A DNA stretch of 39,255 bases, from contig CATKXA010000001.1 in the NCBI GenBank assembly GCA_949840475.1, forward strand, positions 1-39,255, in the 5' to 3' direction. Below are positions 5,932 through 29,461 of this stretch, in pieces. Source of the stretch: an uncultured Thermoanaerobacterales bacterium. GTDB lineage: Bacteria > Bacillota > Clostridia > Christensenellales > UBA1242. A program made the position numbers and the translations under genes. Under the pieces are notes generated by a model that saw only the letters and a program-made list of their open reading frames with translations, ran no database searches and had not been told where the DNA came from. Each line of letters opens with the position of its first letter. Within the stretch, counting starts at the first letter, position 1.

Positions 5932-8900
5932 ATGAAAAAGTTTTTATCGTACATTGTTACCTTTGTTGTAATGTTCTTCATTTCAGCAGCTGTAACAGTG
6001 TCAATGTCAATGTCGGGAGGGGGTTCACTCTTATTGCCTAGCCAAGACGATACGCAGGCAAGTGGCTCTTCCTTTTTTAATGGCATTTTAAAGACTTTTG
6101 AAGAAAATAAGCAGTTTAATGTTATGGGTAACCTAGAGATTAAAACTGAAGATCAAGTAATTCCAGTTAGCCTTTTTGTTAATATTGACTTAGAAGACGC
6201 AAGCAATATTAAAGTCGAAGGCTTTGTAATAGCAAATATAGACCAAAAGTATACTGTTGAGTTTTCTCTATACAATAACTGTTTATACCTATCGTTTGAA
6301 GATATAAATGTAAAATTAAATATCAATGGCTTTAGCGAGCTAATTGATACATTAAGTAATATTTTAGGCACTGGTAATCAAAATGACACTTCAAGCTTTG
6401 TTGAAGATTTGATGCCAACACTAATGGGTGCGTTAGACAATTTAAAAGAAACCGTTACTGCTGATGGCGAGAAACTAGTAGAAATTACTATAGACAATTT
6501 AGTGTCAGCACAAATTCTTCTAGACAAGGACGAAAAACTAAAAAAAGCAAGCCTTGAAACTATAGACTTAGACGGCGTTAGTTTAACTGCTGTGCTTGAT
6601 ATAACATTTGACGAAGAAATCGTCATAACCAATCCAGAAAAGAGCATTCCTGTTAGAGAGTTCTTTGACGTATATGAGCTTTATAACTTAAACTTTGGCT
6701 CAGGCAATTTATTTAATAGCTTTGATTATCAGATTGGCATCAATGCTTTAAACTCTTGCCAAAGTTTAAATGGTTATGCAGTTATAGATAATGGCTTAAG
6801 CATGGTTGGAAACTTAAATGGCTTTGTGAGCCAAAGCTTTAGACTTGACTTTATAGATAACCAGTTATTTGTAAATGTTGGCGACATACGTGTTAAACTA
6901 GATATTGCTAGTCTTGATAGATTGCCTGCCAGCGAGCAAACTAAAGCTGGCATTGGCATTTTAAGTTCTATGCCTAGCATTTCTACAGATATTAGTATAG
7001 ACAGCATTCTAAGTTTGTTAAAACAATCAAAGGTGTGCTTAAGTAAAAATCAGGTACTTTTAAAAACAAACCTTAATGCACTTGGCATTAACTTAGAGGC
7101 CGAGATTGTACTTGCTTTAAATAATTACGAGATTGAAAATATAAGCATTGTTGCGAGCCTAGAGCAAAATGAGTTTAATATAAACTTATGCAAAGCTTCG
7201 CACCAAAAACCAGCCAGCATAGACGGTAATAAGTATCTTGATGTTGTGAACTTTGTAGAAAGCACGATGGAAAACTTTACTTTGAGCGAGGGCAATATCT
7301 TTGCAAGTATTGAGGTGCTTAGTGGCAACAAGCAATATTTAGCCAATGCAAATATATTTGTGTCTGCGATAAATCAATACTTTAGTGCTGATATGAATAT
7401 AGCTGGCGATATGGCATTTGATGCAAACATTGCTATGCAAAATGGTAGACTATTCTTGAGGTCAAATGGCACTGCTCTTAGCGTTGAAACTGAAAGAGTT
7501 TACCAGCTTGTTAAATTCTTGGCAAACAGCAATATTATTAAAAATATCAATGTAGAAGACTTGAGCAAACTTTTAGGAACTTCAAGCGATTTAGTTGGCG
7601 GTTTTGATATAAATGACCTAAAGTGTATAAAAACTCTCAGTGTAGATGCTAGCCAAATAAAGCTTGTTGTGGACGGTGACGTTTTTGGCTCACATAGCGA
7701 CATCACTCTAATAATAACACTTGAAGATTATATTGTTAGCGAAATCGAGCTTATGGGCATTGAAATAGAAGATACTAAAGTAAATGCTAAGTTCAACTTA
7801 TATGGTGGCGAGGTTGAGCAAAAGTATTATAATCCTAATGATTATGCTAACCTAGACAGCGTGGTATCACTATCTGAAGCTGCAGTTAAAACTTTGTACC
7901 AAGATGGTATTAAAGGTAGCATTTATGCCAATTTTGAGTTGTTTGGCGAAATCAACGAGTTAAAACTTGAGTATGGCTTTAACTTTGATAACTGCAACTT
8001 AAATGGATATATTGTTACAAACTTCAAAGGTTTAGATATTAATTTATACTTTATTGACGGAACTTTCTATGCAAACATAATCGGCTTAAAAGTATATGTT
8101 GAGTTCACAGAATTTGGCGACCTTATAAATTACTTATCACGTGAGTTCGGATTAGAGCTTGACGGCTTTGATATTAATAACCTTTTACAAAGCTTGAAAG
8201 ATGTAGACTTAAGCCAGATTATTCTAGGATACATTGGCGGAGAAAAGAGTGTTGAACTTAATCTTGCTAATGATATCACTATCTTTGTTAACTTTGATGA
8301 ATTTGTTAACCAGGTAATAGTTAGAGTTAAAAATGTGTATGTTGAACTAAATGTGTTTAGTTATGACAGCAGCGAGATTGATAATTTAAATAAAGATGAA
8401 TTTGGTCATTATAGTATAATTAAAGATACTGTCAGTGCAATTAAAAATACTCTTAGCGAAAATCAATTTAGTATTAATGCTATAGCAAATGTATATGAAG
8501 ACAATATGCTAACATATAACGCCAATGTTGATTTAGCTGTTGATATGAGTGAAGCGTTTAAAGCAAGTGCTAATGTTTCGCTTACTGGTAAACAAAATAT
8601 TAGTTTAAATGTTAATTATATTGATAGTAAGTTATTTGTTAACTATAACAAACTAAAATTATCTGCAAGCAAACAAAGCATAAGTGAGCTACTAGCATTA
8701 GTTATGCAAATGCTTGGCATCGATGCTTCTAATGTTGGCATTTTAGATAATGTAATTAGTGGCATGGATGTAGACATGAGTGTTTTACAAAGCATTATGC
8801 CTAGCATGGATATGAAAAACCCACTTAATATGCTTACCGTTATCAAAAACATAAGCATTGTTAACAATCAGTTTATCATTACACTAAACGGCGATTTAGT

Positions 8901-11067
8901 AAGTAGTGGTGCTGGCGATATGACTGTTAAGCTAAGCATTAATGCAAACGGAATTGAAAGCATTGAGCTTAACAATATTTATGCAGGCAATGCAAGCGAA
9001 CGCTTTGACTTAAAAATCTTATTCAATGAATTTAATGGCGTGAGCGAGGCTTTTGAGCCTGATAGTTATATTGACATTTCAAACAGCGTAGATTTGCTCA
9101 AAGCATTTATCAATACTGCACAGCTCACTGATTACCATATTGCTGGTCAAGCAAAGCTAGCAATAGTTGGTATCTCTGCTGCAAGCCTATTTATAGACGC
9201 TAGAATAAAGCTTGACGAGAACAAAGTTCCAACTATAGCTGTTAGCATAAGTAATTATCCAATAGTTGCGGGTATTACTAACGAGTTCACAAATGGCGGT
9301 ATTTCTAAAAAGCGTACTATAACAATTTACTATCATGACGGTGCACTATATCTTAAAACCTTTGATGCTAAAGTACTTGGTGCAAGCGAGTATACTAAGG
9401 TTACAAAAATCACACTTAATGATCTTGTAAACGATATGTCATACTATATGCAATGGCTTTTGGGCTTTAAAGACAATATCCAAAGCAAGATTGACGAAGC
9501 AATTAAGAAGAGTCAAGAGTATGAGGGCGAAACAGACATTAGCAATATCTTGCTTGGTTACACTTTTGAAGACAATGTACATAAGCTTCAAATCAACCTA
9601 GCAGAAATTGCTCATAACGACGACCTTGGAACGCTTTCACTTGAGCTTGGAACTAAAAATGATGAGCAAACTAAAAACAAAGAGTTTATCTATGAGCTTG
9701 GTTTAAAAGTTAATTTCTTTGGCAACTTACTCGCACTCGAAACAGATAAGGACAACAAGCTATACTTAACAGATATCTATGAGCCAGTTGACTTGACTGA
9801 GGCTATGGATTATATCAATTCTTATAGCTTTGGCTTTAATGCTGAATACAAACGTGAAGGAAATGGCGAGTTTGTTCAAACCAATGCACAAAATATAACA
9901 ATAACTTTAAATAGCGATGGCGAGCTAAGTTATTTAACAGGAGTTGTTGGTCAAGGCTTAAGCTTACCAATACTTTCTAAAGTACTAGATGACGGCAATA
10001 AAATAACTTACTATACTTTCGCCGGCTGGTACACTTCGGACGGACAAAAGTTTACTGGTAGCAGTTATCCAAAGTCTGACATTACATTGTACGCTAGATA
10101 TAATATAGACTATATTAAATATTATTATTATATTAATTATATATATAATGGAAATGTTGACTCTGTTAAAGTGCTTGAAGGCTCACTTGTTGACCTATTG
10201 ACTTTGGCAAACATGTATCAGGAGCTTGGCGACGATTATATCGAATACAGCTTTGCTGGTTGGTACTTAAACGAGAACCTTTCTGGCGAGCGAATCCATA
10301 GCTTAGAAATTAATGAAAATATTAACCTATACGCTAAGTGGAAAGAAGAAAGAAGAGTATCTAAAAAATTACTAACTATTTACGACAACGGCACACTAGT
10401 GTTTAGTGATAAACTGGTAGTTGGCGACGTTGTTAAGTTGCCTAATGGCATTGCTAAAGACGCAAACACAAAACTATATTTAAACAGCGATTATACTGAT
10501 GAATATACTTTAATCGTAATGCCAAATGAAGATTTAACACTACATGTAAGAAACAAGTATGTTTTGCATGTTGCAAGTGAACATGGAATATTGGTTGACG
10601 ATTATCTAGAACTTTATCAAGGCGAAAACTTTGAACTAGTTAACCAAAACGACTTTGTCAAAGACATATACGGCGTAAGCAAAACCACTGGAGTGTTTGT
10701 TGGTTGGTCATATGCTGGTAATATTATGCCAAACAGCGACTTAACTATTACAGCGAACTGGGACATTGATGTTAAGCAATATTTTACAGTAACTATCCAT
10801 AATGACTGGTATAGACCAGCAGGCTGGGTTACAGACGGCAACATTCAAACATCGTTTGAAAACACTATTACCTTGCAGCCTATGCTAGAGGGCTCTGAAA
10901 TAGACTTATCTGCATATTTTATGACTATCAAAGTTAAATACGGAATAAACTATACATATAAAATCACTGGTTTTTCTGAAAGCACAAAGGGTAGTGGAAC
11001 TAAAATAACAAGCATTGCTAGCTTAGATAAAAATTATGATTTGTATGCAGTATGGAAAAGAGCATAA
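5932..11067 (+). CDS. giant N-terminally membrane-anchored surface protein (1711 aa) with C-terminal Listeria-Bacteroides-type repeats
   Basis: Starts 3 nt after the comEB stop. N-terminal hydrophobic helix. The C-terminal ~390 aa hold about five repeats, three or four ending in aromatic motifs (YTFAGWYTSDG..ITLYARY, YSFAGWYLNEN..INLYAKW, FVGWSYAGN..LTITANW, ..YDLYAVWK). A terminator follows. Confidence 0.85.
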   Translation: MKKFLSYIVTFVVMFFISAAVTVSMSMSGGGSLLLPSQDDTQASGSSFFNGILKTFEENKQFNVMGNLEIKTEDQVIPVSLFVNIDLEDASNIKVEGFVIANIDQKYTVEFSLYNNCLYLSFEDINVKLNINGFSELIDTLSNILGTGNQNDTSSFVEDLMPTLMGALDNLKETVTADGEKLVEITIDNLVSAQILLDKDEKLKKASLETIDLDGVSLTAVLDITFDEEIVITNPEKSIPVREFFDVYELYNLNFGSGNLFNSFDYQIGINALNSCQSLNGYAVIDNGLSMVGNLNGFVSQSFRLDFIDNQLFVNVGDIRVKLDIASLDRLPASEQTKAGIGILSSMPSISTDISIDSILSLLKQSKVCLSKNQVLLKTNLNALGINLEAEIVLALNNYEIENISIVASLEQNEFNINLCKASHQKPASIDGNKYLDVVNFVESTMENFTLSEGNIFASIEVLSGNKQYLANANIFVSAINQYFSADMNIAGDMAFDANIAMQNGRLFLRSNGTALSVETERVYQLVKFLANSNIIKNINVEDLSKLLGTSSDLVGGFDINDLKCIKTLSVDASQIKLVVDGDVFGSHSDITLIITLEDYIVSEIELMGIEIEDTKVNAKFNLYGGEVEQKYYNPNDYANLDSVVSLSEAAVKTLYQDGIKGSIYANFELFGEINELKLEYGFNFDNCNLNGYIVTNFKGLDINLYFIDGTFYANIIGLKVYVEFTEFGDLINYLSREFGLELDGFDINNLLQSLKDVDLSQIILGYIGGEKSVELNLANDITIFVNFDEFVNQVIVRVKNVYVELNVFSYDSSEIDNLNKDEFGHYSIIKDTVSAIKNTLSENQFSINAIANVYEDNMLTYNANVDLAVDMSEAFKASANVSLTGKQNISLNVNYIDSKLFVNYNKLKLSASKQSISELLALVMQMLGIDASNVGILDNVISGMDVDMSVLQSIMPSMDMKNPLNMLTVIKNISIVNNQFIITLNGDLVSSGAGDMTVKLSINANGIESIELNNIYAGNASERFDLKILFNEFNGVSEAFEPDSYIDISNSVDLLKAFINTAQLTDYHIAGQAKLAIVGISAASLFIDARIKLDENKVPTIAVSISNYPIVAGITNEFTNGGISKKRTITIYYHDGALYLKTFDAKVLGASEYTKVTKITLNDLVNDMSYYMQWLLGFKDNIQSKIDEAIKKSQEYEGETDISNILLGYTFEDNVHKLQINLAEIAHNDDLGTLSLELGTKNDEQTKNKEFIYELGLKVNFFGNLLALETDKDNKLYLTDIYEPVDLTEAMDYINSYSFGFNAEYKREGNGEFVQTNAQNITITLNSDGELSYLTGVVGQGLSLPILSKVLDDGNKITYYTFAGWYTSDGQKFTGSSYPKSDITLYARYNIDYIKYYYYINYIYNGNVDSVKVLEGSLVDLLTLANMYQELGDDYIEYSFAGWYLNENLSGERIHSLEINENINLYAKWKEERRVSKKLLTIYDNGTLVFSDKLVVGDVVKLPNGIAKDANTKLYLNSDYTDEYTLIVMPNEDLTLHVRNKYVLHVASEHGILVDDYLELYQGENFELVNQNDFVKDIYGVSKTTGVFVGWSYAGNIMPNSDLTITANWDIDVKQYFTVTIHNDWYRPAGWVTDGNIQTSFENTITLQPMLEGSEIDLSAYFMTIKVKYGINYTYKITGFSESTKGSGTKITSIASLDKNYDLYAVWKRA

Positions 11068-11232: not shown

Positions 11233-11309
11233 CGCGGGATAGAGCAGTCCGGAAGCTCGTCGGGCTCATAACCCGAAGGTCACAGGTTCAAATCCTGTTC
11301 CCGCAACCA
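11233..11309 (+). tRNA. initiator tRNA-fMet (CAT)
   Basis: Cloverleaf read by eye. C1:A72 mismatch at the top of the acceptor stem. Three consecutive G:C pairs in the anticodon stem (GGG CTCATAA CCC). Encoded CCA end. Confidence 0.9.
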
Positions 11310-21697: not shown

Positions 21698-22123
21698 CTA
21701 AAAGTATGAAACGGTTCCTCCGGTAACCCTTGCACTTACATATTGTATTTTAAAGATTTCTATAAATGAGAATTCAGCCAAACTTACACTTACCGTATAG
21801 ACAATCCCTTCCTTAACGTTACCTATTTTGCAAACCTTTGTGACCATGGTGCTGTGGTTTTTATCATAGTATGTAAATGAAACTTGTAATGAAGAGATAT
21901 CGACTTTAGGCGTTATTTTATAATTTATACTGAATGAAAATTCTTCTGATAAATCCAAATAAAGGTCATTATTCGTAGCAGAACGTGAAAATATTTTATT
22001 ATTTCCATCGCTATTTTCCGTGAAAGAAAAATTGCATGCTGAAAAAGAAAGAGTACAAGATAAAATGCAACAAACAAATATAAAACTTTTAAACCAATTT
22101 TTCTTGAATAATATTTTTTCCAT
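21698..22123 (-). CDS. putative lipoprotein (141 aa)
   Basis: Signal peptide ending in the lipobox-like LSFSAC. The mature part is beta-rich. Confidence 0.6.
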   Translation of the reverse strand: MEKILFKKNWFKSFIFVCCILSCTLSFSACNFSFTENSDGNNKIFSRSATNNDLYLDLSEEFSFSINYKITPKVDISSLQVSFTYYDKNHSTMVTKVCKIGNVKEGIVYTVSVSLAEFSFIEIFKIQYVSARVTGGTVSYF

Positions 22124-22142
22124 ATATAAACCTTTTTAATCA

Positions 22143-22171
22143 ATATTACCTTATTTAATATGTTCCGTCAA
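22143..22171 (-). promoter_or_regulatory. sigma-A-type promoter of the lipoprotein gene
   Basis: On the minus strand: TTGACG, 17-nt spacer, TAATAT. Confidence 0.55.
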
Positions 22172-22349
22172 GGCAAAGAATAAGTTTATTTATTTATCTG
22201 ATATTAAATCTTTTCTGTCGATGTCATTTTTGTTACTGTTTTATACTACATTTTAGTTGGATTCAAGGCTGATACAATATTTTTTGCGGCGGTATAGGAA
22301 GGTAATTCAAAAATAGTGGTATTTGTGCAAGCTTGCTCGATGTTAGTGA

Positions 22350-23306
22350 TTAGTTTTGCACTTTATAGTTTTGAAGATTTTTCCATCTAGATTTTAATCC
22401 CATTTCATCGTTTATTCTTGCAATAAAATGTGATTTAATATTTTTTATTAAACAATCTCTTTCTATTATAAACTCTTGCCAAAAACTAGCAAATTCTAAA
22501 GGTTCTAAAAGATATTTGAAAACTATAAGCAGACATAGAAAATCACTTATGCCATGTTTGGGATAACCATATGGGTTCCTATCAATTCTCATTACATCAA
22601 AAATTTCTAAAGAATAAGGAAGCTTATATCTTGACAATTTCTTACAAAACAACCTCTCATCATGTGCAACGGCATTTCTAAAAGCAGTTATGATTTTTAT
22701 CATAATTTCTAACTGAGAAGATTTTAAGTTGAAATCAGACGCAATTTCAGTTTTTTCTTCTAACTTCATATTAGCATAGAACATTGATACTTCACCTATA
22801 GTCATGGATCTTATTAGTACCCATAAAGGTACATGTCCGTGTTCCTTAACGTAATGCTCTATATAATTACGATACTTTTTATTGTTCTTATCTGAAGCCT
22901 CTTCAATTAATTTATTACAATTATTGATCAGCTCTGCAATTCTAGCCTCTTTAGAAACGTCCTTGTTGAAATTATTTCTGACCAAATATTTTCTATTGTC
23001 TTCGCCATGATATTTGCTAAAAGTGTAAGAAACACTAGATTTTAATTTTGATTCAAATATCATAGCATATTTGTAAACAATATTTCTCAGGTTTTTGTCA
23101 AACTTATACAAAGCAACTATATCGTAATCCGATGCGGAATTTAAAAATTTATTATCTTGGTTTTTAAAGATAAAACTATAACCATTTATTAAGTTATAGT
23201 ATCCTGTTTTTTTAAGCATTTCAATAAATAAGGGTTCGTCATTAAAAATTAAATCTCTTTCTTTAAGAATTTTTATTTGTTCTTCGTATGTACTAAAAGC
23301 TTTCAT
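22350..23306 (-). CDS. Abi_2-family (AbiD/AbiF-like) abortive-infection protein, HEPN-type
   Basis: The N-terminus STYEEQIKILKERDLIFNDE...GYYNLINGY matches my recollection of the Abi_2 family consensus. An Rx4H motif (RNAVAH) lies in the C-terminal half. The gene is visibly AT-rich. Confidence 0.8.
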   Translation of the reverse strand: MKAFSTYEEQIKILKERDLIFNDEPLFIEMLKKTGYYNLINGYSFIFKNQDNKFLNSASDYDIVALYKFDKNLRNIVYKYAMIFESKLKSSVSYTFSKYHGEDNRKYLVRNNFNKDVSKEARIAELINNCNKLIEEASDKNNKKYRNYIEHYVKEHGHVPLWVLIRSMTIGEVSMFYANMKLEEKTEIASDFNLKSSQLEIMIKIITAFRNAVAHDERLFCKKLSRYKLPYSLEIFDVMRIDRNPYGYPKHGISDFLCLLIVFKYLLEPLEFASFWQEFIIERDCLIKNIKSHFIARINDEMGLKSRWKNLQNYKVQN

Positions 23307-23966: not shown

Positions 23967-24134
23967 TTAAAAGTTACTGAAAAAGTGTTCACATTTAAAA
24001 TTATTCGCTCTTATTACGTTCATCTTATTTCTTGTGCAATGCCCGACATCAAGTTTTTCTATGCCTTTTCCTCTCAAGCAGTAATGTTGCACAAAATATT
24101 TACATCTTTCGCATTTATTTAAACTCGTATACAT
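23967..24134 (-). CDS. small Cys/His-rich protein (55 aa), probably leaderless; below the ORF-track cutoff
   Basis: Manual translation gives MYTSLNKCERCKYFVQHYCLRGKGIEKLDVGHCTRNKMNVIRANNFKCEHFFSNF. A perfect consensus promoter ends 7 nt before the ATG, there is no SD, and a terminator follows. Confidence 0.6.
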   Translation of the reverse strand: MYTSLNKCERCKYFVQHYCLRGKGIEKLDVGHCTRNKMNVIRANNFKCEHFFSNF

Positions 24135-24141
24135 ATTCTAT

Positions 24142-24170
24142 ATTATAGTACGAGATAATCTTACTGTCAA
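24142..24170 (-). promoter_or_regulatory. perfect consensus sigma-A promoter driving the Cys-rich small gene
   Basis: On the minus strand: TTGACA, 17-nt spacer, TATAAT, then 7 nt, then the ATG. Confidence 0.7.
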
Positions 24171-24215: not shown

Positions 24216-24413
24216 ATGTTTGCAAAAAGATTGAGAGAAATAAGGTTTGGTAGTGGAATTACGCAAGTAGAGCTTGCTAAAGTTTTGAATGTGACTAAAG
24301 CAACTGTTAATGACTGGGAACATGGCAAATGTGAAACCAACTTTGATATGCTTGTAAAAATTGCCAAATACTTTGGAGTTTCAACGGATTACTTGCTAGG
24401 ATTAGAAGATTAA
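24216..24413 (+). CDS. XRE-family HTH regulator (65 aa)
   Basis: The pattern RLREIR...ITQVELAKVLNVTKATVNDWEHG...L.KIAKYFGVSTDYLLGLED is classic for a short XRE HTH. Confidence 0.9.
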   Translation: MFAKRLREIRFGSGITQVELAKVLNVTKATVNDWEHGKCETNFDMLVKIAKYFGVSTDYLLGLED

Positions 24414-24444: not shown

Positions 24445-25785
24445 TTAGCCTATTACAAAGAGAGGTTTAACTCTTAGTTTACTTCTATCTGTTCTAAAGC
24501 CTTCGATGCTTCCGTCGGCAGATACCTTAATAGATATGCCATAGTTTGATAGAGTTTTTGCTGCGGCAAGGCGACCACCGCCAATACTACCAGCCTCTAT
24601 CTTAATTATTGCACCTATAGCCAAGATGTTACCCTCATAATCTATTATGCTAGCCCCGTCAATGCCTAAAAGTTCAAGTCTTAGTTTTCTATTGAGGTCT
24701 TGGAACTTATTGTTGCCAATAATTCGCTTTAAGTTACATGTTTTGTTACACTTTTCTTCTTGCAAAAAGTTTTCAAAGCTTGGCAATTCATTATTTGTAT
24801 TTATTTCATGGAAAAACGACTGATTGATTTGGTCTTGGACTTTATAATCATAGCAGTCTTTAGCAAGTAGGTCTGAAGTATCTATATGTTTAAGGACATT
24901 AAACCTTTCGTTGCTATTAACATGCACAATACAGCCACCGCTGCGTTCAAAAGATAAGTCAAGAGCGGATAGGTAGATAGCTTTTCTTACTTCTTCAACT
25001 TCGCCACTCTTTTCTGCAAGTTTTGCTATGATTTCCTCGTGGCTAAAGCAAACCCAAGCACCATTACGTTTTGCAAATAGTAGTTGCTTATCTTTAAAAA
25101 TTAAAACATCGCCTTCTTCAACCAAGCACACGCCGATTTTTGAACCAACGCAAGCATTTGCAAGGTCAATATACTCATAAGGAGCAAGTAGGTCTGCCTT
25201 TGCTGTTTTATTAAAATGCTGGTAACCAAGCAAGTATCCGTCAGCAGAAATGTTTAAGCAGGTATTGATGCCGTCGGACAAAAGAGCACTATAATCACGT
25301 TTTAAAACGTTTTCAATTTTAGTGTTAGGATTGATTGGCCTCGGAGCCTTTTTGTTAGTTATAATAAAGCCGAACTTGGCTTTTCGTCCCTCATAAGTTC
25401 TAAGCCCCCAGCTAGATACCATAGTTAGCAGGCTGTTTAGAGTAGAGTGTGCATTCTTTGTTAGGGCGGAGCAGATTGCTTTTTGAGTAACTTGACTTTC
25501 GATGCCTGTTATAAAGTCCTCTGAAAGGTTGGCTTTAAAAAGAGTGCTCATCTCGTCGATAATAGAGCGGACAAGCGAGATTTCAAAAGACTTGAAAGGC
25601 TGAACTCGTTTAATAATAAACCTTGAAGCGTCTTGCCTATTAAATTTAACCAAAAGGGTACCGCCATTGCCTTGGGCAACGCACGCATCTCTATTGCTCG
25701 ATTCTTCTTCTCCGACAATCTCGGAGCCAGTGAACATAGAGAGTATTGTATTTTCGAGAAAAGATATAAAGCGTTCTCTTTTCAT
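24445..25785 (-). CDS. hypothetical protein (446 aa) with a C-terminal DisA_N/diadenylate-cyclase-like region and an unknown N-terminal region
   Basis: Start moved to the ATG (MKRERF) after GGGG. By-eye matches to DAC motifs are SGGCIVHV (GALIV), IDGASIID..ILAIGA (HDGAxII), GGGRLAAA (GTRHRAA) and KVSADGSI (VVSEETG.IS). No TM helix. Confidence 0.6.
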   Translation of the reverse strand: MKRERFISFLENTILSMFTGSEIVGEEESSNRDACVAQGNGGTLLVKFNRQDASRFIIKRVQPFKSFEISLVRSIIDEMSTLFKANLSEDFITGIESQVTQKAICSALTKNAHSTLNSLLTMVSSWGLRTYEGRKAKFGFIITNKKAPRPINPNTKIENVLKRDYSALLSDGINTCLNISADGYLLGYQHFNKTAKADLLAPYEYIDLANACVGSKIGVCLVEEGDVLIFKDKQLLFAKRNGAWVCFSHEEIIAKLAEKSGEVEEVRKAIYLSALDLSFERSGGCIVHVNSNERFNVLKHIDTSDLLAKDCYDYKVQDQINQSFFHEINTNNELPSFENFLQEEKCNKTCNLKRIIGNNKFQDLNRKLRLELLGIDGASIIDYEGNILAIGAIIKIEAGSIGGGRLAAAKTLSNYGISIKVSADGSIEGFRTDRSKLRVKPLFVIG

Positions 25786-25951
25786 ACTTTGAACCCCTAA
25801 TGTAGATTTTAAATGCAATTTTTCTTATAATTAAATTTATAGTAACATTAAATTGCGTAAAAATCTACCATTTGAACTAATATTTTTGTGTTTTAGTGCT
25901 ATTTTTTGCATTTTCAACAAAATTATCCTAAAAAATATATAAAAATCTTGT

Positions 25952-26009: not shown

Positions 26010-27302
26010 ATGAAAAAAAGACAATTTTCTTGTATAAAAGATTACTGCGAAAGCTGTGCTCACATTATGGCTGAAAAGAATGAGTATCCAATCAACTGCG
26101 ATTACAGCTGTTTATCTATGGATATTACTTGTAACCATGCACACTCTAAACTTTGCAAAAGTTGCGGTCAGGCAATTAATGATAATCAGTTTCAAGACGA
26201 CGTAAAGCTATTAGATAGTGCTCTTTCTAATAAAAAACTAAAAGTCATATGCTTTACTGCACCTTCAGTACGTGTTGCTCTTGGCGATGAGTTTCAGTTG
26301 CCTGTTGGAACAAATGTACAAGGCAGAATGGTTAGTGCTTTGAAAGAATTAGGCTTTCATGCTGTTTTTGATATGAACACTGCTGCAGACTTTACAATAA
26401 TCGAAGAAGCAAATGAGTTTGTTAATAGGCTTAAAACTAACAAAAAGCTACCAATGTTCACAAGCTGTTGCCCGGGCTGGGTAAGTTACTGTAAGAAACT
26501 TTATCCCAAGTTTGTAAAGAATTTGTCCACTTGCAAAAGCCCTCAGCAGATGTTTGGTGCAATGATAAACAATATTTATGCGAACCAAAACAAGTTTGAA
26601 AGCACAGACATGTTTGTTGTGTCAATAGTTCCATGCCTTGCAAAAAAACTTGAGCTTAGGCAAGAGGGCATGAATACAAATGTTGGGCTTGACGTAGACG
26701 TTGCTATCAGTACAAAAGAGTTGGCAAGTTTGATTAAAAGTAAAGGCATAGATTTTGTCAATTTGAAGGAGCAAGATTACGACCAATTTTTTGGCTCATC
26801 TAGCGGAGCTGGGGCTATATTTGGTAACACTGGTGGGGTTATGGAAGCAGTGCTCAGAACGGTAGACAGTGACCAAAATAAAGTGATAAATAAAATAGAA
26901 TACAAAATGGTTAGGGGCTTAAAAGGAATACGTAAAGCCACTATAAATATAGGTGGTAGAGATATCAACCTTGCAGTTGTAACGGGGCTTAAAAATATCA
27001 AGCCGTTAATGGACGAGATAATACTAAATCCTAGTGCATATGACTTTATTGAGGTTATGGCATGTGAGGGCGGGTGCATTGGTGGAGGCGGCCAACCAAG
27101 AGTAAAAGGCATGCCGCTTAATGAAGTTCTAAAAGCACGCTCTAATGGACTGTACTCTTATGAAAAGACACTCAAATGTAGAAAAGCTCACGACAATGAT
27201 GCTGTTAAAGATATTTATAAAAAGTATCTAGGCAAAGTAGGGGGCAAAGAAGCAAAACGATTGTTGCATGTTCATAGAAAGCCTAAAAAGCTGACAAAAT
27301 AA
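26010..27302 (+). CDS. [FeFe]-hydrogenase catalytic (H-domain) protein with an atypical Cys/His-rich N-terminus
   Basis: The three H-cluster motifs are present: TSCCPGWV, VPCLAKKLE and EVMACEGGCIGGGGQP. Confidence 0.9.
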   Translation: MKKRQFSCIKDYCESCAHIMAEKNEYPINCDYSCLSMDITCNHAHSKLCKSCGQAINDNQFQDDVKLLDSALSNKKLKVICFTAPSVRVALGDEFQLPVGTNVQGRMVSALKELGFHAVFDMNTAADFTIIEEANEFVNRLKTNKKLPMFTSCCPGWVSYCKKLYPKFVKNLSTCKSPQQMFGAMINNIYANQNKFESTDMFVVSIVPCLAKKLELRQEGMNTNVGLDVDVAISTKELASLIKSKGIDFVNLKEQDYDQFFGSSSGAGAIFGNTGGVMEAVLRTVDSDQNKVINKIEYKMVRGLKGIRKATINIGGRDINLAVVTGLKNIKPLMDEIILNPSAYDFIEVMACEGGCIGGGGQPRVKGMPLNEVLKARSNGLYSYEKTLKCRKAHDNDAVKDIYKKYLGKVGGKEAKRLLHVHRKPKKLTK

Positions 27303-28264: not shown

Positions 28265-29461
28265 TTATTCATTACCTCCAAATTCGTCTGATTTATTATT
28301 TGATTTATTATTTATCTTTTCGTTTAGTAAGTCAACCAATTCTGTAGACTTATTTGATTTCCCTTTTGCAGGTATTAGTGTTTCTTTTAATGCATCTACA
28401 AGCAAGTCGCCATTATATTTTTCCATATTTATATATTGTTTAACAAATATAGCAAGAAGACTTTTTCTATATGCATCGAACGAGAATGATGAGTCAAAGA
28501 GTTTAATATCTGAGGAGATTTCAAAATCGCTAAGATGTTCGTGAAGATCCTCTTTACTTATCAGACTCAAAATGTTGCGATCATAATCTATTGAAATATA
28601 TGGGAGATAGTTTTCATCAAGAGTAGCTAGCATTATATAAGCAGGTTCGCCTATAATTTTGATAGTGTCAGGTTTAATTAAAGAACGTTCAAAATCTTGT
28701 GGTCTGAAAAGATGCGTATACACATAAGAGCTTGCCCATTTTAAAGCTTTTGCTTTTTTTTCTATCTTTTCTTTTTCAGAAATATAGTCACAGTTGCCAT
28801 AAGTGTCATAACAAGACTCCTCACCACAGTTACCATTGTTGCATTTGGTGCGATGGTATTCATTGTATTCTTCTGAGGCTTGTTGTGTTTTGTTAACAAG
28901 GTCAAGTAAAAGAGAGAGTTCTCTAAGTGCTGGTTCTTCAGAATTTAGCTTTGCATGTTTGAAAACAGTAGCCATGTGAGTTTTTGCGATTTTTTTATCA
29001 AAATCTCTTTGCATGGTTTGAATAGCCGATAGAGGCAAAGCTGCAGATACTACAGAGTCTATAACATTTCTTAATTCAAGTATGCTCTCATTTGTAACCC
29101 TATGAGGAATATTTTCGCTCTCAAACTCTTCATATAGCCCAATTATAAGTGATGCGTTTATTGCTAGGTTTTTATCGTTAGTTTGTTTCAAATAGTTGTA
29201 TAAATTAAAAGCCATCGCAATAAAGTTGTTCATATATACGGAATTTTCAGCATTTAGAAGATTAGGGAGCATTTTAATATAGTATCTTAAATCATTTTTA
29301 AACTGAATTATCTGATCAAGAGTTTCGCTGTCGCTTGATGGGATTGAGTATGCCATCTTTAGTTCTTGTTCAAAGGATTCAGATAGCTTGAAACTATTTG
29401 GTATGTATCCTTCCATGTCTAGTATTTCAGGGGTACGTTTTTTAATATATATTGGTTCCAT
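28265..29461 (-). CDS. hypothetical protein (398 aa) inserted between dnaX and ybaB
   Basis: An AAGGAG built into the last dnaX codons lies 8 nt upstream of the ATG. The stop lies 1 nt before the ybaB ATG. Contains a Cys cluster CNNGNCGEESCYDTYGNC. No family recognised. Confidence 0.75.
   Translation of the reverse strand: MEPIYIKKRTPEILDMEGYIPNSFKLSESFEQELKMAYSIPSSDSETLDQIIQFKNDLRYYIKMLPNLLNAENSVYMNNFIAMAFNLYNYLKQTNDKNLAINASLIIGLYEEFESENIPHRVTNESILELRNVIDSVVSAALPLSAIQTMQRDFDKKIAKTHMATVFKHAKLNSEEPALRELSLLLDLVNKTQQASEEYNEYHRTKCNNGNCGEESCYDTYGNCDYISEKEKIEKKAKALKWASSYVYTHLFRPQDFERSLIKPDTIKIIGEPAYIMLATLDENYLPYISIDYDRNILSLISKEDLHEHLSDFEISSDIKLFDSSFSFDAYRKSLLAIFVKQYINMEKYNGDLLVDALKETLIPAKGKSNKSTELVDLLNEKINNKSNNKSDEFGGNE

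Follow-up and report, generated by a model that had tools for sequence, protein, structure and literature searches.

What does the gene at positions 24445-25785 (minus strand) of this 39,255-nucleotide stretch encode, and does it belong with the defence genes beside it? The stretch, the whole of which we call the window, comes from an uncultured Thermoanaerobacterales bacterium (contig CATKXA010000001.1), and a preliminary description made from its letters had taken the gene product for an orphan protein with a C-terminus resembling a diadenylate cyclase (DAC), lying in an accessory islet and possibly part of a conflict system. We label this DAC-fold family protein X. On our structural models X is soluble and has three parts, a beta/helical segment at the N-terminus, an alpha/beta domain in the middle and a DAC at the C-terminus, and we consider it reasonably probable, by analogy with known enzymes, that it is a predicted active cyclic-dinucleotide synthase gated by its N-terminal ~255 amino acids (aa), with receptors in trans in Clostridia and with ~400-aa relatives recruited to defence. 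The earlier proposal of a sensor-coupled nucleotide cyclase remains the best reading of a conserved DAC core joined to a conserved N-terminal region.

The open reading frame (ORF) of X is a real gene. Its start lies inside a longer minus-strand ORF (24445-25818), at an ATG at 25785 that coincides with the N-termini of all full-length homologs.

24445..25785, minus strand: gene X, complete, 446 aa plus stop (ORF list; full-length homologs with the same start; ribosome-binding site)
25794..25797, minus strand: Shine-Dalgarno-like GGGG, 8 nt 5' of the X ATG (direct sequence reading)

That the C-terminal ~190 aa of X adopt a DAC fold is, as a prediction from alignments and models, secure. The domain and a clade-specific insertion within it map as follows.

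24448..25020, minus strand: C-terminal DAC (DisA_N-type) fold domain, residues 256-446 (model, Foldseek, hhalign, relatives' Pfam scores)
24763..24861, minus strand: clade-specific helical insert of ~33 aa, residues 309-341, between DAC strand 1 and the helix before the Asp-Gly-Ala (DGA) motif (alignment; model)

A first full-length AlphaFold model (model 1), built on a shallow alignment, reached a predicted local distance difference test (pLDDT) score of 73.5, was poor at residues 249-282 and 424-446, and already had DisA as the top-ranked Foldseek match (E~1e-2). It was replaced for the C-terminal half by a model of residues 256-446 from a diverse alignment of 45 sequences (pLDDT 93.8, predicted template-modelling score 0.88), for which Foldseek returned 50 matches at E<1e-3, every one a DAC domain (CdaA, DacA, DisA, CdaM), these top 50 having a probability of 1.00 and template-modelling (TM) scores of 0.60-0.65 when normalised to the ~150-aa targets. 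Profile comparison agreed: with PDB chains 3c1y, 7y0d, 9y4s, 7dfx, 8ofo and 6hvl as the DAC reference sequences (a DisA sequence served only as bait for recovering such chains), hhalign aligned family profiles to DACs at E=2.5e-4, 8.7e-5 and 6e-5, in a register that sets IDGA on DGA, GGGRLAAA on GTRHRAA and KVSADG on VVSEETG. In the model, GGCIVHV forms beta-strand 1 of the fold, and all four correspondences first drawn by eye thus hold. The relatives supply a third line of evidence. Pfam DAC was matched weakly by 6 of 42 diverse relatives, and eight full-length relatives at ~40% identity scored 24-28 bits over profile positions 42-105 of 119, two of them (P0296 and P0299, at 27.7 and 28.1 bits) above the Pfam gathering score of 27. 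X itself gave nothing significant in Pfam, NCBIfam, PADLOC or PDB sequence searches, the only trace being a match of residues 363-395 to NCBIfam NF053872 ('DS2_3 anti-phage protein') at E=0.11. We accordingly place X in the DAC superfamily by modelled structure and transitive homology, not by Pfam score, and the DAC-like C-terminus of the preliminary description is borne out by Foldseek, hhalign and the relatives' scores alike. The insert within the fold, which had been put at ~60 aa, measures about 33 aa; it is missing from 81 short-branch (~400-aa) proteins and is modelled as helices at high confidence, not as low-complexity filler.

Whether such a domain could be catalytic turns on three short motifs.

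24652..24660, minus strand: DGA motif, D376-G377-A378 (D and G in 311/311, A in 302/311; aligned to the DGA of DisA/CdaA)
24571..24582, minus strand: GGGR loop, G402-G403-G404-R405 (G403 and R405 in 311/311; hhalign register)
24514..24522, minus strand: S422-x-D424, counterpart of S-E-E in the CdaA 'VVSEETG' strand (S in 310/310, D in 308/309)

Across the 311 aligned family proteins, D376, G377, G403 and R405 never vary, and K420 (308/310), A407 (301/311) and A408 (306/311) vary hardly at all; position 406 is Leu in 209 of 311. The commonest loop strings are [TSEV]GGGRLAAA and the family signature is GS.GGGR.AAA. One hhalign register equates G403-G404-R405-L406-A407 with G-T-R-H-R, and another run is shifted by one residue. 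In a recent survey only D, G, G and R were fully conserved across all curated bacterial DACs (EcPanS D68, G69, G103 and R105; PMC13640721, 2026 preprint). The defence cyclase PanS has the catalytic motifs DGF and GGR; once these are mutated it no longer makes 3'3'-cUA or c-di-AMP, and its crystal structure shows the phosphodiester backbone held by D71, G72, G107 and R108 (10.64898/2026.08.10.743927, 2026 preprint). To judge from its conservation, the GGGR loop is a constrained motif and not a product of decay, and to call it an eroded Arg-His-Arg (RHR) motif, as had been done, is misleading, since the signature is invariant in the family and the universally conserved Arg is retained.

Ahead of the DAC lie two further regions.

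25402..25785, minus strand: N-terminal segment, residues 1-128 (model 1 secondary structure, pLDDT about 75-90)
25021..25401, minus strand: middle alpha/beta domain, residues 129-255, a putative sensor/regulatory module (conservation, model 1)

In model 1, residues 22-59 form four strands, residues 66-126 three long helices, and residues from about 130 to 250 an alpha/beta domain. These ~255 aa align across the entire family, and by alignment they are shown to be an integral and equally conserved part of its architecture: an alignment of 23 loci shows no variation at F64, Y131-E132-G133, G172, P202, L221 and W244, and next to none at R240 (residue frequencies for this region were computed over 313 proteins). 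No Pfam or NCBIfam model matches the region, and no DACNG or DACNH match was found in X (E<=10), in the 42 diverse members or in 10 further divergent members (E<=1). X has no transmembrane segment (maximum Kyte-Doolittle 19-residue mean 1.3, and soluble domains in the model) and no Pfam match to a helix-hairpin-helix (HhH) domain. The preliminary description was thus right that transmembrane helices, HhH and cdaR/glmM neighbours are absent and that the N-terminal region carries no recognisable motif, being like neither CdaA, DisA nor the DACN* families. In two relatives the N-terminus is fused to a further domain, HU in P0140 and AlbA_2 in P0141. A longin/roadblock identity for the N-terminal part was considered and rejected, as it drew only weak Foldseek matches (E 0.02-2) and one Robl_LC7 match (E=0.0098, among the 42 members). 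An internal duplication of the DAC in the middle domain was not significant either (hhalign E=0.011, probability 3.8%) and is kept as a lead.

The protein is no orphan. In a word-indexed search it had at least 329 homologs, 55-78% identical, nearly all of 443-448 aa and drawn from gut and rumen 'Clostridia bacterium' metagenome-assembled genomes (MAGs). When 1.84 billion cluster representatives were scanned exhaustively with HMMER, 865 relatives came up at E<=1e-3 (299 at E<=1e-30), each representing a cluster at 50% identity. Many of the latter are 395-420 aa long and match in two blocks because the clade-specific insert is missing there. In species-representative genomes we found 75 loci with the gene, ~60 of them from Clostridia/Christensenella-like MAGs and the others from Bacillales, Deltaproteobacteria, Planctomycetes, Bryobacterales, Prosthecobacter, Omnitrophota, Novosphingobium, Brevundimonas, Wenzhouxiangella and others. 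PGAP names family members 'hypothetical protein', and the absence of a Pfam or NCBIfam model or name suggests that the family is uncatalogued.

Within the gut and rumen Clostridia clade, X is vertically inherited, lies in housekeeping synteny and has the composition of a core gene. A Fe-hydrogenase-like gene is conserved divergently upstream in 23 loci (L004-L017 and others), a gene for inosine-uridine nucleoside hydrolase (IU_nuc_hydro) lies directly upstream in 32 loci with gaps of typically 11-15 bp, and gpmI (iPGM, cofactor-independent phosphoglycerate mutase) lies directly downstream in 16. One subclade has the order tadA-like deaminase, a ~745-aa protein without Pfam domain, IU-nucleoside hydrolase, X, gpmI, a gene string seen in L001, L026-L040 and others (e.g., L001 4243-10866); co-transcription of a nucleoside hydrolase with a nucleotide cyclase may be functionally meaningful. 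In the subfamily at 40% identity the order is rnc, smc, ftsY, sigma factor, X, rarA, polA, ruvX, and housekeeping synteny is seen in three subclades of the window's clade in all. Neither cdaR (YbbR) nor glmM is among the neighbours in the window or in the ortholog neighbourhoods, the gene that follows X in the 16 loci being gpmI, not glmM. A conserved upstream partner of ~700-780 aa across phyla was considered and dropped, the upstream proteins being unrelated (HsdM, McrB, Lon and the 745-aa Clostridia protein). The GC content of X in the window (0.389; 0.349 at third codon positions, GC3) is like that of recR, RecD2 and the Fe-hydrogenase-like gene. The window copy is probably an ordinary cellular gene, and because of the vertical conservation, the core-like composition and the housekeeping synteny, a cellular signalling role is favoured for its clade.

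If X works as DisA, CdaA and PanS do, two of its DAC domains would pair head-to-head and join two nucleoside triphosphates (NTPs), ATP being the likeliest, to form c-di-AMP or a closely related cyclic dinucleotide. Gating of this activity would fall to the N-terminal and middle domains, upon a cytosolic cue, possibly one related to nucleic acids, as for DisA; the HU and AlbA_2 fusions and the DNA-metabolism neighbours hint at such a cue. In the window's Clostridia lineage the product would feed receptors encoded elsewhere in the genome, which would account for the lack of an effector in cis.

Several observations weigh against the proposal that X is a gated, active synthase. X gives no match to Pfam DAC (PF02457) even at E<=10, nor do ten divergent members at E<=1. 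The loop keeps the first Arg of RHR while the His and the second Arg are replaced (L406 and A407), and in canonical accounts RHR serves to bind the ligand (PMC8573169). The 33-aa insert, together with the tandem N-terminal domains, could block head-to-head pairing. We infer the sensor role of the N-terminal region from architecture only. The window holds no c-di-AMP riboswitch, Rfam finding only three tRNAs there. Finally, c-di-AMP signalling is not typical in Proteobacteria, so that a housekeeping c-di-AMP role cannot hold for the whole family, which has many Proteobacterial members.

A different explanation is that the window copy is itself a generator of phage-defence signals: its N-terminus would sense infection, and its DAC would raise a nucleotide alarm for AbiD or some other effector, whether close by or in trans. 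We think this unlikely for the window gene. The case for it comes from the AbiD gene 1.1 kb from X (PADLOC E=1.9e-50), from the now documented existence of defence-associated DACs, and from the short-branch relatives. These are embedded in type I restriction-modification (R-M) loci, with the order HsdM, HsdS, X, an AlbA_2/HATPase_c_4 protein and an unannotated large ORF in L067 (L067|+3, 1136 aa, which its position suggests is HsdR), HsdM-HsdS-X in L073 and X-HsdS-HsdM-Fic in L091; L069 carries fragments resembling the L067 HsdM and the 1136-aa ORF. McrBC settings are McrB-McrC-X in L078 and, in L086, a MmeI-type R-M enzyme, X, McrB, McrC and two GmrSD genes. On the Agrobacterium vitis plasmid pRvVAT039d (L084, NZ_AP023285.1 12390-18190), the gene converges, across a distance of 118 bp, on a complete type II cyclic-oligonucleotide-based anti-phage signalling system (CBASS) of patatin, DncV-like CD-NTase, ThiF/Cap2 and MPN/Cap3. 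A NACHT STAND NTPase and a HsdR-like helicase adjoin it in L088/L089, beside an integrase fragment, as do an AAA_13 ATPase and a HEPN protein in L090. Other settings vary: a Paracoccus plasmid carries the gene in cargo flanked by insertion sequences, in Brevundimonas sp. TWP2-1 it separates gatA (Amidase) from gatB, ordinarily direct neighbours in one operon (L074 6255-10761), and Bacillales show the order lon-X-addB-addA. AlbA_2 (Schlafen) recurs around the family, both in the gene directly downstream in L067 (AlbA_2 + HATPase_c_4, 9233-10867) and in the P0141 fusion. Because of this repeated defence-island position an immune role is suggested for the ~400-aa branch, which was probably recruited to anti-phage islands in other phyla as a third kind of defence-associated DAC beside CdaG/DS-2C and PanS; by analogy, its role could be comparable to that of DS-2C, whose own purpose beside CBASS is unresolved. 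Classical c-di-AMP signalling is often missing in the hosts of this branch.

For the window gene the same explanation runs against the dense vertical conservation and the housekeeping synteny of its clade, and against the islet itself. The window order is dnaX, an unannotated 398-aa ORF, ybaB, recR, the Fe-hydrogenase-like gene and X, followed by a XRE gene, a 55-aa Cys-rich ORF, tRNA-Met, tRNA-Glu, AbiD and several unannotated ORFs. Upstream of X are 224 bp of intergenic sequence and then its divergent partner, the Fe-hydrogenase-like gene (26010-27302, plus strand); on the other side the XRE gene (24216-24413, plus strand) is convergent with X, 31 bp separating the two ORFs. AbiD, the small Cys-rich ORF and the ORFs beyond have no counterpart in the loci of any relative of X, and in relatives at 71-74% identity (L004-L006, L009 and L010) SecA occupies the place of the islet; the XRE gene is likewise unique to the window genome. 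The composition differs sharply, AbiD having a GC content of 0.273 (GC3 0.238) against 0.346 for the whole window and the higher value of X; the XRE gene and the small ORF, too, are far richer in AT than X. The islet is strain-specific and probably arose by insertion at the tRNA genes. Because its genes are absent from the relatives' loci and the hydrogenase-like neighbour is conserved in 23 loci, X borders this islet and is no part of it. The placement of X in an AT-rich islet, its link with the XRE, AbiD and tRNA genes and its accessory origin, all of which had been proposed, are therefore not supported; the conflict-system idea gains support at the level of the family, from the ~400-aa relatives in R-M, McrBC, CBASS and NACHT/HEPN neighbourhoods, and finds none in the window gene's islet. 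Nor does any effector co-vary with X: no recurrent partner was seen in about 90 loci, and no PADLOC model matches the protein. A phage or plasmid origin was rejected as well, the family having no matches in IMG/VR, one hit to an unannotated 6.6-kb 'Bacteriophage sp.' fragment, members on 3 of 72,556 plasmids and no structural match in BFVD.

The islet and the rest of the window hold some features of their own. The AbiD/Abi_2 gene and a 141-aa ORF (21698-23306, minus strand; GC 0.273 and 0.296) lie beside tRNA-Glu and tRNA-Met. The 55-aa Cys-rich ORF (23967-24134, minus strand) has a zinc-ribbon-like CxxC...C...C...C pattern and is preceded by a promoter (24142-24170, minus strand) that matches the sigma-70 consensus perfectly (TTGACA-17-TATAAT, 12/12). 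It is divergent from the XRE/HTH gene, which encodes 65 aa and matches the PADLOC models HTH_VI, RmrA and control protein, and the two look like a small regulatory switch pair. The Fe-hydrogenase-like neighbour of X is a 430-aa protein with the [FeFe]-hydrogenase large-subunit C-terminal and small-subunit domains only, plus an N-terminal Cys-rich stretch, and may be a sensory or atypical hydrogenase. The genes dnaX, ybaB and recR form a contiguous cluster in many bacteria; here a 398-aa ORF without Pfam match (28265-29461, minus strand) lies between dnaX and ybaB-recR, overlaps the ybaB start by 17 nt and has a short Cys-rich patch (CNNGNCGEESCYDTYGNCDY). A very large ORF of 1711 aa (5932-11067, plus strand) is followed by tRNA-Met at 11233-11309.

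A further alternative, which we hold to be doubtful, makes the whole family a third and so far unreported class of immune DACs, stand-alone proteins of ~400 aa that insert in R-M, McrBC and CBASS islands. As one joint proposal, the middle domain would be a degenerate DAC-like duplicate, comparable to the DACNH domain of CdaG, pairing intramolecularly with the active DAC; the protein would have a single catalytic site and would make a linear or asymmetric dinucleotide, or merely burn NTPs; and the window gene, with the rest of its gut Clostridia clade, would descend from such proteins by domestication and now serve cellular signalling.

We give still less credence to the view that X is a pseudo-cyclase, in which the DAC would do no more than bind ATP, c-di-AMP or another dinucleotide, the output coming from the N-terminal domains, an option that the preliminary description had also raised. 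The incomplete RHR speaks for it, with Leu and Ala where His and Arg would stand; the invariant polar residues of the middle domain (Y131 and E132) could form a separate active or binding site; and DAC folds can be non-catalytic, as the DACNH domain of CdaG is reported to be DAC-like and without catalytic residues. Pseudo-enzymes, however, normally lose their catalytic residues, whereas here the four universal ones are conserved in every one of the 311 sequences, from many phyla, and S422 and D424 are essentially invariant. Because X keeps the minimal set, DG plus GGR, that supports catalysis in PanS, a documented active DAC, a pseudo-cyclase is disfavoured. That X is an unrelated alpha/beta protein whose DAC likeness is convergent or too weak for homology, as the lack of Pfam, NCBIfam and PDB sequence matches and hhalign probabilities of just 43-65% might suggest, is very improbable against 50 top structural matches that are all DACs, motifs that are ordered and in register, and full-length relatives above the curated Pfam threshold.

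If X is, as we favour, a gated synthase, it is most like a sensor-coupled DAC in the way it would work. Its features leave it outside CdaA, DisA, CdaG/DS-2C and PanS. With PanS (the minimal DAC of Panoptoo/PanDA systems), X shares the DAC fold, a Gly-Gly-Arg loop in place of RHR and the Asp-Gly of DGA. PanS, whose activity has been shown by experiment (its product is 3'3'-cUA or c-di-AMP), is ~150 aa long, lacks a regulatory domain and is paired with the 2TM-beta effector PanE, whereas X and its relatives have 400-450 aa, a conserved ~255-aa N-terminal region and DGA where PanS has DGF, and none of the about 90 loci inspected showed a PanE-like partner. The short-branch relative beside a patatin/Cap2/Cap3 CBASS offers a point of contact, since such CBASS have been reported near PanDA. 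Like CdaG/DS-2C, X is a large soluble DAC with uncharacterised N-terminal domains before the DAC; purified DS-2C synthesises c-di-AMP, and an association with defence and CBASS is known for CdaG. CdaG, however, is about 550-575 aa long and is built from DACNG, from DACNH, which has been described as DAC-like but degenerate, from the DAC itself and from a helix bundle at the C-terminus, whereas X has no DACNG or DACNH matches and scores 10.8 bits against NF053872 (over 33 residues, in the DGA region only) against a cut-off of 630. DisA is likewise soluble and among the best structural matches of X, and the HU and AlbA_2 fusions and the neighbours addAB, rarA, polA and recR are DisA-like hints of a connection with DNA. 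In DisA, though, the DAC is N-terminal and followed by a helical linker and HhH, while in X it stands at the extreme C-terminus, with neither HhH nor a full RHR, and no radA was seen among the neighbours annotated in the window and in the 40% subfamily. With CdaA/DacA the likeness lies in the catalytic fold (top Foldseek matches 8ofh, 6hvm and 4rv7; TM-score about 0.65) and in an acidic residue that follows the conserved Ser at a distance of two positions (D424 in X, the second Glu of 'VVSEETG' in CdaA); CdaA differs in having N-terminal transmembrane helices and a cdaA-cdaR-glmM operon.

DACs were first shown to act in anti-phage immunity in 2026, in two classes, the minimal PanS and the ~550-575-aa CdaG/DS-2C, both of which were found through recognisable DAC signatures. 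The family of X, with its 865 cluster representatives, keeps the universal catalytic residues and yet is almost invisible to the Pfam DAC and DACN* models, so that censuses built on those models may have missed it; it could be a missed class of DAC enzymes. The family offers a new N-terminal regulatory architecture for cyclic-dinucleotide synthesis. In its 'housekeeping' and 'defence-island' branches it also provides a natural pair in which to follow the recruitment of signalling enzymes to immunity. For the abundant uncultured Clostridia of gut and rumen, X is a candidate extra source of c-di-AMP, which bears on STING-type sensing of this molecule by the host.

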